From an uncultured delta proteobacterium (lineage in GTDB: Bacteria; Myxococcota; Myxococcia; Myxococcales; Myxococcaceae), in contig CAWCKH010000004.1 of the NCBI GenBank assembly GCA_963796055.1, positions 480,001 to 544,000 of the forward strand: a DNA stretch of 64,000 bases. The letters are read 5' to 3'. Positions 25,865 to 28,620 of this stretch are shown one piece after another. A program made the translations under genes and the position numbers. The notes beneath the pieces were generated by a model. That model ran no database searches. It was not told the origin of the DNA and was given only the letters and a program-made list of their open reading frames with translations. Numbering within the stretch: position 1 is the first letter of the stretch; each line of letters starts with the position of its first letter.

Positions 25865-25880
25865 TGGCACTGCCGGTGCA
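25865..25880 (+). promoter_or_regulatory. sigma54 -24/-12 promoter for microprotein P1
   Basis: TGGCACTGCCGGTGCA = GG-N10-GC, ending 48 nt before ATG 25929. Confidence 0.75.
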
Positions 25881-25928
25881 GCGTCGACCCGCCACACCGG
25901 CTCGTCGCGGGTCGGCGGGGAGACCACC

Positions 25929-26108
25929 ATGCAGGCAGAGTTCTTCGTCGCACCCCGCGCGGTGACCTCCGGCAATCCCGGGTGGCTCCTCGGCGCCGCG
26001 TTGATCCTCTCGTACTTCTTGCTGTCCGCGGCGCTGGTGCAGGACTTCTCCCGCGCCTCGACCCCGCCGCTCGCGGGCGAGATGACCATCCTGGTGCGCG
26101 CGAGGTAG
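25929..26108 (+). CDS. Single-TM microprotein P1 (59 aa)
   Basis: MQAEFFVAPRAVTSGNPGWLLGAALILSYFLLSAALVQDFSRASTPPLAGEMTILVRAR; RBS GGGGAG. Below the ORF-track cutoff; aligns with P2-P4. Confidence 0.75.
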   Translation: MQAEFFVAPRAVTSGNPGWLLGAALILSYFLLSAALVQDFSRASTPPLAGEMTILVRAR

Positions 26109-26127
26109 GGCCTTTGCCCATGGGTCG

Positions 26128-26165
26128 AAGAGGGGTGGCCGGGTCACGGTCGACGTCCCTCTCTT
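26128..26165. terminator. Imperfect hairpin between convergent P1 and P2
   Basis: AAGAGGGG...CCTCTCTT outer stem and TGGCCG/CGGTCG inner stem. Confidence 0.35.
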
Positions 26166-26169
26166 GCCG

Positions 26170-26358
26170 TTACCTGGCCTGCGCGACCTGGGCGATCACC
26201 GTCGGGGCGTCGGTGCTGGTGACCCGGTAGGCGCTGTACAGCGCGCCGTGCCCACCCACCCAGGCGCCGACCAGCACCGCACCGGCAACGAGGATCCCCC
26301 GCCCTCGGGTACGGGCGATCTGTTCGAACGACTTCAGCGAGGTCTGCGAGGTCTTCAT
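26170..26358 (-). CDS. Single-TM microprotein P2 (62 aa)
   Basis: MKTSQTSLKSFEQIARTRGRGILVAGAVLVGAWVGGHGALYSAYRVTSTDAPTVIAQVAQAR; RBS GGAG; aligns with P1, P3 and P4. Confidence 0.72.
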   Translation of the reverse strand: MKTSQTSLKSFEQIARTRGRGILVAGAVLVGAWVGGHGALYSAYRVTSTDAPTVIAQVAQAR

Positions 26359-26416
26359 GACTGTCTCCGGTCGAAGGGTCGGCCGGCTTTCAGCGCCGGC
26401 CACGCGGACACTGAAT

Positions 26417-26432
26417 TGCACCCCCGGGGCCA
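26417..26432 (-). promoter_or_regulatory. sigma54 -24/-12 promoter for P2
   Basis: Minus strand TGGCCCCGGGGGTGCA = GG-N10-GC. Confidence 0.65.
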
Positions 26433-26483
26433 CCCTGGAGGCGCTCCATGTGCTCGATTTCACAGGGCTCTCACCTTGTCCGC

Positions 26484-26532
26484 GTTGCGTCCGGGGTCAC
26501 GGTTCGGGATCGGCCGTTGCGCAGCCGGTCAC
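26484..26532. promoter_or_regulatory. Tandem putative enhancer sites for P2 (also upstream of the activator gene)
   Basis: GTTGC-N7-GTCAC at 26484-26500 and again at 26516-26532 (32 bp apart). Confidence 0.65.
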
Positions 26533-26570
26533 GGCGTCGCCTTGGGGGTGTGGTCCAGGTAGGTTCACGC

Positions 26571-27983
26571 ATGCGGATGCCGTCGCGCGACAGAGAGCGG
26601 GAAATTCCTGAGGAAGTGGGCAGCGGCGAGCCGGCGCCGCCGCCCGAACGGGACGCGCATGCCACCGCCACCTTCGGCGTCAGCCGTCCCAGCCTCGTGC
26701 CGGACGTCCGCCGGTTCCGGCTGCGGGTGGTGGACGGACCGGGCGCGGGCCAGAGCTTCGAGTCCACCGGCGAGCGCACCTCCATCGGCAGTCACCCGCT
26801 CAACGACGTGCTCCTCGACGAGCGCACCGTGTCCCGCTTCCACTGCGAGCTCCTGGTCGACGAGAAGGGCGTCTGGGCCAAGGACCTCGGCAGCCGCAAC
26901 GGCACGGTGCTCGACGGCGTGCTGGTGAAGGAGGCCGCGGTCCGCAACGGGAGCCTCCTCCAGCTCGGCCGGGTCGGCCTGCGGTTCGAGCTGTCCGGGG
27001 AGAAGACCCGGCTCCAGCTGTCGGAGCACCCGAGATTCGGCTCGCTGGTGGGCAGCTCGGTGGCAGCGCGGATGAGCTTCGCCCTGATGGAGCGCGCCTC
27101 GGCCTCGGACGTCACCGTCCTCCTCGAGGGCGAGACCGGCACCGGAAAGAGCCAGGCGGCGGAGTCCATCCACCGCCAGTCGAGCCGGCGCGACCACTCG
27201 TTCCTGGTGGTGGACTGCGGCGCGATGCCGCCCAACCTCCTGGAGTCGGAGCTCTTCGGCCACGAGAAGGGCGCCTTCACCGGAGCGATGACCCGTCGGG
27301 TGGGGGTGTTCGAGGAGGCCCGGGGCGGGACGGTCTTCCTCGACGAGATCGGCGAGCTGCCGCTGGAGCTCCAGCCGAAGCTCCTCCGCGTCCTGGAGGC
27401 CAGGGAGATCCGCCGGCTGGGGACCAACACCTATACCCCCGTGGACGTCCGGATCATCACCGCCACCAACCGTGACCTGCGCGCCGAGGTGAACGCCGGC
27501 CGCTTCCGCTCCGACCTCTACTTCCGGCTGGCGGTGGTGAAGGTCTCGCTTCCTCCGCTCCGCCAGCGCTCGGAGGACGTGCCGCTCATCGTCGAGAAGC
27601 TGGTCAGCGGCCTCGGAGCGGATGCGCGGGTGAGGGCCACCCTGCTCGACCCCGCCTTCGTCGCCCAGCTGCAGCGGGCCGCCTGGCCGGGCAACATCCG
27701 CGAGCTCCGCAACCACCTCGAGCGGTGCGTGGTGCTCCAGGAGACGCTGCTCCCGGGCGAGGGGGAGGAGAGCGCCCGGCCTCCCGGCGACGCGCCCACC
27801 ACCATCGATCCGCGGGTGCCCTACCCCGAGGCGCGGCGGCGGGCGCTGGATGCCTTCGAGCGGCAGTACGTGGAGGCGCTGCTCCAGCTGCACGGCGGGA
27901 AGGTGTCCCAGGCCGCGGCCTCGGCGGACATCGACCGGGTGCACCTCTACCGGCTGATCAAGCGTCACCGCGTCCGGGACTGA
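26571..27983 (+). CDS. FHA-domain sigma54-dependent enhancer-binding protein (FHA, AAA+, HTH)
   Basis: FHA: IGS..NDVLL..TVSRFH..DLGSRNGT. AAA+: GETGTGKS, ESELFGHEKGAFTGA, FLDEIGE, FRSDLYFRL, WPGNIRELRN. C-terminal Fis-type HTH. Confidence 0.95.
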   Translation: MRMPSRDREREIPEEVGSGEPAPPPERDAHATATFGVSRPSLVPDVRRFRLRVVDGPGAGQSFESTGERTSIGSHPLNDVLLDERTVSRFHCELLVDEKGVWAKDLGSRNGTVLDGVLVKEAAVRNGSLLQLGRVGLRFELSGEKTRLQLSEHPRFGSLVGSSVAARMSFALMERASASDVTVLLEGETGTGKSQAAESIHRQSSRRDHSFLVVDCGAMPPNLLESELFGHEKGAFTGAMTRRVGVFEEARGGTVFLDEIGELPLELQPKLLRVLEAREIRRLGTNTYTPVDVRIITATNRDLRAEVNAGRFRSDLYFRLAVVKVSLPPLRQRSEDVPLIVEKLVSGLGADARVRATLLDPAFVAQLQRAAWPGNIRELRNHLERCVVLQETLLPGEGEESARPPGDAPTTIDPRVPYPEARRRALDAFERQYVEALLQLHGGKVSQAAASADIDRVHLYRLIKRHRVRD

Positions 27984-28035
27984 CGGCGGACACCGACCGA
28001 CCAACACCTTCTCCGCTGTGCAGTCCCGTTCTCGC

Positions 28036-28084
28036 GTTGCCCCGGAAGTTCCATTTCCGGAACGGCCGTCGCCGCTGCCGCAAC
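28036..28084. promoter_or_regulatory. Tandem putative enhancer sites for P3
   Basis: GTTGC-N7-GTTCC at 28036 and GTCGC-N7-GCAAC at 28068 (32 bp apart). Confidence 0.6.
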
Positions 28085-28139
28085 GGCCCTCGGGGAAGGA
28101 CCTCCGTGAAACCCCCGGCAATCACGCTCTCCGGCAACC

Positions 28140-28155
28140 CGGCACGCGCGCTGCA
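28140..28155 (+). promoter_or_regulatory. sigma54 -24/-12 promoter for P3
   Basis: CGGCACGCGCGCTGCA = GG-N10-GC. Confidence 0.72.
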
Positions 28156-28198
28156 GAGCGACCGGGGGCAGGCAATGCCACCCGCAGGAGAGAAGACG

Positions 28199-28363
28199 AT
28201 GCGCGCCCAGACCGAGTCCGTTTCCCCCATCTTCCAGAACTCACGTCGTCGCTCGCCCGGGCTCGTGCTGGGAATCCTCCTGGTGCTTGGCTACTTCGGC
28301 ACCGCGGTGGTTCTCATCCGCGACTACTCGGCGGCCCCGTCGACCTTCGACCAGGTCGCGTAG
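28199..28363 (+). CDS. Single-TM microprotein P3 (54 aa)
   Basis: MRAQTESVSPIFQNSRRRSPGLVLGILLVLGYFGTAVVLIRDYSAAPSTFDQVA; RBS AGGAG. Confidence 0.8.
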   Translation: MRAQTESVSPIFQNSRRRSPGLVLGILLVLGYFGTAVVLIRDYSAAPSTFDQVA

Positions 28364-28399
28364 CGACACGCACCACCGCTGGCGGCATGCCCTCATCGC

Positions 28400-28433
28400 G
28401 CACGGCCCGGGACGACGACGTCTCGGGCCGTGC
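28400..28433 (+). terminator. 15-bp hairpin between P3 and P4
   Basis: GCACGGCCCGGGACG-ACGA-CGTCTCGGGCCGTGC (one G.U pair); no clear U-tract. Confidence 0.55.
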
Positions 28434-28491
28434 AGTGTTCGGCGCAGCCCGTCCCCGCGCGTGCGCACCCCGGACACCTGAGCGACGGCGC

Positions 28492-28541
28492 GTTGCACCG
28501 GACGCCACAGCTGGCACAGGCAGTGTCACTTCCGAAGCAAT
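28492..28541. promoter_or_regulatory. Tandem putative enhancer sites for P4
   Basis: GTTGC-N7-GCCAC at 28492 and GTCAC-N7-GCAAT at 28525 (33 bp apart). Confidence 0.6.
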
Positions 28542-28604
28542 GGACCCTGCCGGCTAGGCTCCTCAAGTGTCCGCAACTCCCGAGGGAAGCGGGGGGTTCG
28601 GGGC

Positions 28605-28620
28605 TGGCATCGCCGCTGCA
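28605..28620 (+). promoter_or_regulatory. sigma54 -24/-12 promoter for P4
   Basis: TGGCATCGCCGCTGCA = GG-N10-GC. Confidence 0.75.

Follow-up and report, generated by a model that had tools for sequence, protein, structure and literature searches.

The locus and its -24/-12 boxes

We analysed a stretch of 64,000 nucleotides (nt) from an uncultured delta proteobacterium of the Myxococcaceae (GCA_963796055.1, contig CAWCKH010000004.1, positions 480,001 to 544,000), here called the window, which comes from a genome (G000) of 5.53 Mb with a GC content of 71%. Within it, four short open reading frames (ORFs) for microproteins, A to D, surround a gene for a sigma54 activator with an FHA domain (Table 1). 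The original prediction was that each microprotein gene has a sigma54 promoter of its own, in the form of a 16-mer with exact GG-N10-GC spacing that ends in TGCA, points toward its gene and stops 36-58 nt before the start codon. All four 16-mers were found at the predicted coordinates and on the predicted strands, with the spacing, the TGCA end and the orientation as described, and the distances to the start codons were 48 nt for A, 58 nt for B, 43 nt for C and 36 nt for D.

The textbook consensus is TGGCACG-N4-TTGC(T/A). The first T of TTGC was missing from the four boxes, where G, G, C and C stood instead, and likewise from all 24 distinct boxes used for training. In its available part, PMC9765219 includes CTGC and GTGC -12 elements among the sigma54 promoters of Myxococcus xanthus (in its own Table 1), and also lists the missing first T for the pilA promoter and for the nla28 promoter, which was tested by mutation.

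The number of motifs in the window was at chance level, with 9 occurrences of YGGC-N8-TGCA compared to 7.2 +/- 2.4 in shuffled sequences and 1852 occurrences of the bare GG-N10-GC pattern. The count alone is therefore uninformative, and the signal is held by placement and conservation. The pattern YGGY-N8-TGCR was located 30-70 nt before the start of 19 out of 1136 ordinary first genes of the genome (1.7%), and the nominal chance of the four-of-four placement was about 8e-8, for a pattern that was fitted after the sites had been seen. Searches for sigma70-type promoters yielded 0 matches in the segment 25600-29200.

We examined the conservation of the boxes in a dataset of 42 orthologous promoters (11 for A, 13 for B, 8 for C and 10 for D), including the four of this genome but leaving out three rows that had been mis-assigned to C (L009, which belongs to A, and L010 and L011, which belong to D). 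Both boxes and the length of the spacer were kept in all 42 promoters, and the fraction of the majority base was 0.95-1.00 inside the boxes versus 0.55-0.73 in the flanks. Two divergent C orthologues outside this dataset read CGGTAC yet keep GG-N10-GC. In G010, from which ORF A is gone, the leftover box has lost its GG.

Paralogues that had been held out from the training gave a similar picture. Five of the six found by protein similarity in this genome had a box 35-61 nt upstream, as did 5 of 7 paralogues beyond the locus in the same genus and all 16 members found by protein similarity alone in a second genus, g24. The five boxed held-out paralogues in this genome also carried the 17-bp site described below, which was absent from the boxless one. 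Two paralogous microprotein genes, each with its own box and site, flank a threonyl-tRNA synthetase-like gene on the opposite strand (C2:55512-57993). In one paralogue (C4:3460123-3460320; L046), the box has decayed to GG-N10-GT, both here and in G010, with the ORF still open.

The genome contains rpoN and two HU/IHF-family genes. Phylogenetic footprint, held-out paralogues and the presence of rpoN all support the original suggestion of sigma54-type promoters, and we regard the boxes as very likely real promoters of this known kind. A partial second match to the sigma54 DNA-binding domain was also seen at C5:237688-237879, in addition to the full rpoN.

Table 1. Features of the locus, in positions of the window.
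Feature	Position	Strand	Remarks
Microprotein A	25929..26108	+	59 aa; single hydrophobic helix; dN/dS 0.60
Microprotein B	26170..26358	-	62 aa; single hydrophobic helix; divergent from activator; dN/dS 0.49
Microprotein C	28199..28363	+	54 aa; dN/dS 0.46
Microprotein D	28657..28833	+	58 aa; most conserved; predicted helix residues 22-52; dN/dS 0.19
Activator	26571..27983	+	470 aa; FHA - sigma54 AAA+ - putative Fis-type helix-turn-helix (HTH), from domain matches; GAFTGA intact
-24/-12 box, gene A	25865..25880	+	ATG at 25929 (+); predicted start ~25891; boxes kept in 11/11 promoters
-24/-12 box, gene B	26417..26432	-	ATG at 26358 (-); predicted start ~26406; boxes kept in 13/13 promoters
-24/-12 box, gene C	28140..28155	+	ATG at 28199 (+); predicted start ~28166; boxes kept in 8/8 promoters
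-24/-12 box, gene D	28605..28620	+	ATG at 28657 (+); predicted start ~28631; boxes kept in 10/10 promoters
Candidate activator site, B, proximal	26484..26500	+	RTTGC-N7-GYSAC
Candidate activator site, B, distal	26516..26532	+	32 nt from proximal; 38 nt before activator start codon
Candidate activator site, C, distal	28036..28052	+	weaker match
Candidate activator site, C, proximal	28068..28084	-	conserved in alignments
Candidate activator site, D, distal	28492..28508	+	conserved in alignments
Candidate activator site, D, proximal	28525..28541	-	inverted; 33 nt from distal
IHF-like site, B	26447..26459	-	14 nt upstream of -24 box; 2 mismatches
aa, amino acids; dN/dS, ratio of nonsynonymous to synonymous substitution rates.

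Paired upstream sites and the adjacent activator

In alignments of orthologous regions, B, C and D were found to share a conserved upstream pseudo-palindrome of 17 bp, RTTGC-N7-GYSAC. At all three genes the sites are paired 31-33 nt apart, which equals three helical turns, and are located 51-97 nt upstream of the -24 box. Genome-wide, strong sites at a helically phased distance from correctly spaced boxes numbered 31 compared to 11.8 expected, an excess that is partly due to the training sites themselves, whereas no such phasing was seen with boxes one base shorter (6 vs 7.4) or longer (8 vs 5.7). A 13-mer resembling the IHF consensus was present with 0-2 mismatches at a fixed distance of 14-15 nt from the B box in 12 of 13 B promoters; as a background, 62 of 3000 intergenic windows had a match with no more than 2 mismatches.

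The activator gene encodes a Sigma54_activat domain (PF00158, E 1e-65) preceded by an FHA domain (PF00498, E 2e-14). The Walker A and B motifs are present in the sequence, and GAFTGA is found at residues 234-239, so the activator is GAFTGA-intact as originally claimed. The match to the Fis-type HTH (HTH_8, PF02954) scored 20.4 bits, below the cut-off of 22, and the region is nearly invariant among orthologues. Orthologues of the activator were identified in all 12 genomes of the same genus, with A, B, C and D around them where the contigs reach. Out of 35 activator-like segments in this genome, the activator of the window is flanked by three site pairs, and one other segment has a pair, a single one about 1.5 kb away. 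Near distant activators, site pairs were seen at only 1 of 88 loci.

In each of the seven g24 genomes, the gene next after the orthologous activator is D-like, as judged from coordinates; five of the D-like promoters were found by protein search and the other two by DNA pattern. The same-genus orthologues and the two g24 proteins compared do not differ in their predicted recognition helix. A composite pattern of site plus box had matches in 7 of 7 g24 genomes and 0 control matches, while most other genera were near the control level (for g5, 4 matches in 3 of 4 genomes versus 5 in the control). On these grounds, the activator of the window is with good probability the protein that binds the 17-bp sites.

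Related activators in large-genome Myxococcaceae adjoin a gene for a Ser/Thr kinase, as do two of the microprotein paralogues in this genome, where no clear orthologue of the activator-linked kinase was found (best match 41%). Given an FHA domain that lacks an expected Arg, there is about an even chance that the activator receives its input through this domain from Ser/Thr kinase signalling. In the segment 26536-26573, GTCGCC is invariant, TAGGTT is conserved five bases ahead of the activator ATG, and there is no Shine-Dalgarno sequence. Possibly, this is a promoter that abuts the distal activator site and produces a leaderless activator message, an arrangement that would allow autoregulation; a hexamer similar to TAGGTT was not seen at the equal distance in g24.

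Overall, we consider it likely, from the comparative sequence evidence, that the four boxes are conserved sigma54-type promoters, each serving its own single-helix microprotein gene, and that they are the likely core of a regulon that the adjacent activator turns on via the paired sites at B, C and D. Dimers of the activator would bind each 17-bp site of these three genes, and the bound activator would reach sigma54 RNA polymerase at the box by looping, with help from IHF at B. The promoter would then open, with transcription from about 11 nt after TGCA. Gene A would be activated from the sites of B, about 610-650 nt downstream.

Several observations weigh against this interpretation. The genomes are close kin, so the counts of conserved boxes are not independent trials, and the paralogue at C4:3460320 has no box, nor does its orthologue. 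Both the phased distances and the relaxed box were chosen after the training sites had been seen, and the genome-wide enrichment and the p-values for box placement are thereby inflated; site-pair counts alone were only mildly enriched at a spacing of 30-34 nt (23, versus 8-19 at other spacings). IHF-like sites at A, C and D were no better than background, so that the site is seen at B only. A paralogous activator, 59% identical, is encoded at C4:402078-403367 and falls in the same supported clade; together with site-like scores near it in relatives, this means that it could share the motif or own it. In an Archangium-like genome, this site geometry recurs ahead of the gene for a 272-aa protein next to that genome's related activator, and the motif is thus not unique to the activator of the window. 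Phosphothreonine-binding FHA domains carry the motifs G-R, S-x-x-H and N-G. In the FHA domain considered here S-R-F-H and N-G-T are present, but G-S replaces G-R (Ser74), in 18 of 18 homologues. Finally, no conserved upstream activator site was found at A among its 11 promoters.

The last point bears on the original claim that the four genes are co-regulated. Having four boxes next to an activator is not enough to show co-regulation in a genome with about 33 loci for sigma54 activators (the 35 segments identified with tblastn). Co-regulation is supported for B, C and D, which share the upstream site, and is less certain for A, which lacks it. A few single weak matches were detected at -333 to -434 in 3 of the 11 A promoters. 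The nearest strong pair is that of B, 605-650 nt downstream in 9 of 10 relatives and 752-785 nt downstream in the remaining one. We consider it roughly a toss-up whether A is driven from these sites, and A may answer to another activator. For rocG in Bacillus subtilis, an enhancer that lies downstream and also serves a neighbouring gene has been described (PMC4941409), and downstream sites have been reported for some Desulfovibrio promoters (PMC4641369), as far as the available parts of these two sources go.

A few smaller features are located next to these genes. The segment 25733-25819, on the minus strand and divergent from A, is what remains of a fifth ORF for a small hydrophobic protein, noted here and upstream of A in L005 and L006. 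This ORF is truncated here, intact in G009 and G001 (about 60 aa) and absent from the other relatives aligned. No sigma54 box was seen at this remnant. GC-rich hairpins occur at 26378-26402 on the minus strand, near the predicted 5' end of the B transcript and with compensating changes in relatives, and at 28375-28415, after the stop codon of C. Possibly, these are stems that stabilise or terminate the mRNA.

The microprotein family and the predicted regulon beyond the locus

The original prediction also took the four ORFs to be real genes, which agrees with their conserved lengths and with pooled dN/dS values of 0.19-0.60, calculated without a 98-aa read-through allele of B (L004). Profile searches yielded 185 and 60 homologues, nearly all 50-65 aa among the matches listed; from the larger search, 120 of the 185 matches were used. 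Where the listed matches bore an organism name, it was in all cases Myxococcaceae bacterium. Profile matches were present in 62 of 195 genomes of the family, some of the weakest of them inside long ORFs and probably false. The microproteins that were scanned had no significant match in Pfam or NCBIfam, a sequence search of PDB returned nothing below E 0.05, and Foldseek gave no match for the single-helix model.

For the analysis of sequence features, we used 199 homologues, after removal of six long or fused matches and of long entries that could not be trimmed. The net charge was +2.1 before the helix and +0.1 after it, and this bias predicts inner-membrane anchors with the N-terminus inside and the C-terminus outside. 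The conserved elements were the helix itself, which is rich in glycine, an LF-x(2-5)-R motif that precedes it and, in most of the subfamilies, a Tyr or Phe at the end. The LF-x(2-5)-R motif, predicted to be cytoplasmic, was present in 143 of the 199 homologues. Our best guess, a tentative one with somewhat more against it than for it, is that the microproteins use this motif and the glycine-rich helix to modulate larger membrane proteins, within a programme of envelope remodelling or stress.

The ten best box-plus-site matches in the genome were all intergenic, and an ORF preceded by a ribosome-binding site lay after each of them. Eight of these ORFs encode hydrophobic proteins of 54-64 aa, one a soluble protein of 63 aa and one a probable lipoprotein of 139 aa; the genes for the latter two were refound in relatives by DNA pattern alone. 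By comparison, a box together with a strong site was found at 2 of 1136 ordinary genes. We dropped a 51-aa ORF at C2:209017 as a microprotein candidate because it is 307 aa long in G007. A second family of small proteins (49-83 aa) had boxes in all four same-genus genomes searched, their paired sites being at 41 and 72 nt. Its members (C4:3599816-3601124 and C4:299374-299550 in this genome; L246-L256) have no match in Pfam; several of them combine a signal-peptide-like N-terminus with a conserved C-terminal stretch and may be secreted peptides. Most members of the predicted regulon are thus small proteins that are exported or located in the membrane.

Distant homologues with a CxxxC tail, from the genera g5, g6, g29, g75 and g77, served as a negative control. 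A box 30-70 nt upstream was found in 0 of their 14 loci, a count that does not include L174, where the tail pattern is unmatched and a box is also absent. Instead, 13 of the 14 loci were preceded by GCAAT-N16-CGTA, a motif chosen by eye from these same loci, which we take to be similar to promoters used by extracytoplasmic function (ECF) sigma factors. Homology of this subfamily to the others rests on E-values of 1e-6 to 3e-4. A sub-threshold match of one CxxxC homologue to COX14 was read as generic helix similarity. Most of the CxxxC loci (L155, L157, L172, L175-L183, L192 and L194) are located near genes that resemble class II aldolase, microcompartment vertex and tat genes, names that were given from reading the translations. 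One family behind a sigma54 box in two genera and behind an ECF-like motif in others would make a clean case of promoter rewiring.

A more far-reaching scenario would be a regulon made up almost wholly of microproteins under a Ser/Thr-kinase-linked sigma54 activator, in which one undescribed membrane family supplies about nine paralogues and a second family consists of small exported proteins, each gene with its own promoter. The family would have been captured from an ancestral ECF-sigma promoter and multiplied under sigma54, to act as combinatorial membrane regulators or feedback inhibitors in soil myxobacteria. We regard this scenario as doubtful.

Competing explanations and comparison with known systems

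One alternative is that the microproteins, rather than being general envelope effectors, inhibit the activator in a feedback loop by tethering it, or else its kinase, to the membrane, in the manner of PspA or MgrB. Consistent with this, their genes cluster around the activator, the cytoplasmic motif is widespread in the family, kinase genes adjoin two paralogues as well as the closest activators in large-genome Myxococcaceae, and an FHA domain that lacks the expected Arg could recognise a peptide that is not phosphorylated. However, distant homologues whose N-terminal motif is similar are present in genera that yielded no close activator orthologue (best matches at about 58% or below the threshold), these homologues stand behind a different type of promoter, and the neighbours of most paralogues are unrelated. 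We consider an inhibitory role unlikely.

Another possibility is that the promoters are sigma54-dependent without forming one regulon, with a paralogous or other activator binding the 17-bp sites and A answering elsewhere. The genome offers about 33 activator loci to choose from, among them the paralogue at C4:403k in the same clade, similar sites occur near related activators in other genera, and A has no conserved upstream site. Against this stand the location of three of the strongest site pairs, which flank the activator of the window, the several differences in the predicted recognition helix of the paralogue and the situation in g24, where 6 of 7 genomes have a single activator above the 1e-150 threshold and this activator adjoins a target gene with the same sites. 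This makes the involvement of a different activator a rather improbable explanation.

We also considered that the ORF products might be precursors from which cleavage releases pilin-like subunits or short peptides for secretion, given a basic N-terminal region followed by a hydrophobic stretch, many dispersed paralogues with promoters of their own and, in D, a short and highly conserved C-terminal tail. The patterns expected of such precursors were scarce: the prepilin pattern G-xxxx-E matched 4 of the 199 homologues and the Flp pattern E5-Y6 matched 0, none of A-D among them, and there was no match to a pilin family. Signal-peptidase-like A-x-A occurred in 100 of 199 homologues compared to 116 expected from shuffled tails, and cleavage of this kind seems improbable. 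Separately, the microproteins were rejected as lipoproteins or Tat substrates, with a lipobox Cys in 1 of 199 homologues and S/T-R-R-x-F-L in 0 of 199.

It is still less probable that the boxes bind sigma54 without initiation or are kept for another reason, other promoters being used. For A this could be read-through from the upstream operon, with which it is co-directional, and A is without upstream sites of its own. All positive cases had the right orientation and a gap of 33-71 nt to the ribosome-binding site, and the paired upstream sites in phase, the decay of the box after loss of the gene and the lack of sigma70-type matches in the region all speak for initiation at the boxes. That the boxes are chance matches in GC-rich DNA, as the window-wide count by itself would allow, has a negligible probability in view of their conservation against drifting flanks, the held-out paralogues and the low background rate.

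In our preferred interpretation of conserved sigma54-type promoters under the adjacent activator, the locus resembles several known systems. Jelsbak, Givskov and Kaiser reportedly described FHA-domain sigma54 enhancer-binding proteins of M. xanthus in 2005, and the activator of the window is similar to these in its order of FHA, AAA+ and putative HTH domains and its intact GAFTGA. Relatives that are 62-65% identical to it are widespread in large-genome Myxococcaceae, several of them next to a Ser/Thr kinase gene; unlike these, the activator of the window belongs to a separate clade with g24, and among eight loci of the relatives one had a site pair and none had a microprotein. The layout of the locus is also reminiscent of the phage-shock regulon of PspF in enterobacteria, in which the activator gene is divergent from a target with two upstream sites and an IHF site, a further target lies at a distance, and the outputs include small membrane proteins. 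PspF lacks a sensor domain at its N-terminus and is restrained by PspA. We rejected a Psp system here, as an FHA domain is present, there is no PspA-like gene in the locus and none of the locus proteins matched a Psp family.

As in the Nla28 regulon of M. xanthus, sigma54 promoters are dispersed and accompanied by paired sites, with CTGC or GTGC often found at -12 (PMC9765219). According to the available part of the same source, Nla28 has a histidine kinase partner, loosely spaced 8-bp half-sites CT(C/G)CG(C/G)AG, and targets that are regulatory, metabolic and envelope operons, whereas we observed a 17-bp pseudo-palindrome, pairs at a fixed spacing of 31-33 nt and predicted targets that are mostly monocistronic genes for small proteins. 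The proposed activation of A and B resembles that by RocR at rocG-rocABC in B. subtilis, where one intergenic enhancer is upstream for one gene and downstream for another (PMC4941409). What the available part of that source provides is experimental, while our case is a prediction; the targets of RocR are metabolic, and the genes are in tandem there and convergent here. The one-component activators of Desulfovibrio vulgaris are likewise co-localised with, and often divergent from, their sigma54 targets (PMC4641369). Their sites are mostly within about 100 nt, with a few downstream, and the targets named in the available part of that source are metabolic, transport and flagellar operons rather than microprotein families.

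Sigma54 promoters and FHA activators are already known in myxobacteria. A literature search yielded no description of this motif, family or regulon in the available parts of the sources (including PMC6971385, PMC9131029 and PMC12316311), leaving aside the main 2005 study of FHA activators and the supplementary tables of M. xanthus sigma54 targets (PMC9765219). With the same 2005 study set aside, the search also returned neither a regulon consisting mainly of microproteins nor, for an FHA-type activator, a binding motif or a set of targets. The locus provides a candidate 17-bp motif with an exact geometry, a list of targets and about 200 unannotated small membrane proteins from hosts that appear to be uncultured, and the motif doubles as a finder of small genes that are missed by protein searches and gene callers.

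Upstream of A, no linkage between the elb-like operon and the activator was seen in the two g24 loci examined. In the window, this operon (20227-25688) encodes a protein with reductase, acyl-CoA synthetase, acyl carrier protein and acyltransferase domains, followed by an NAD-dependent epimerase. The order of domains matches that of ElbD and ElbE of ether-lipid synthesis in M. xanthus, as given in the available part of PMC9131029.

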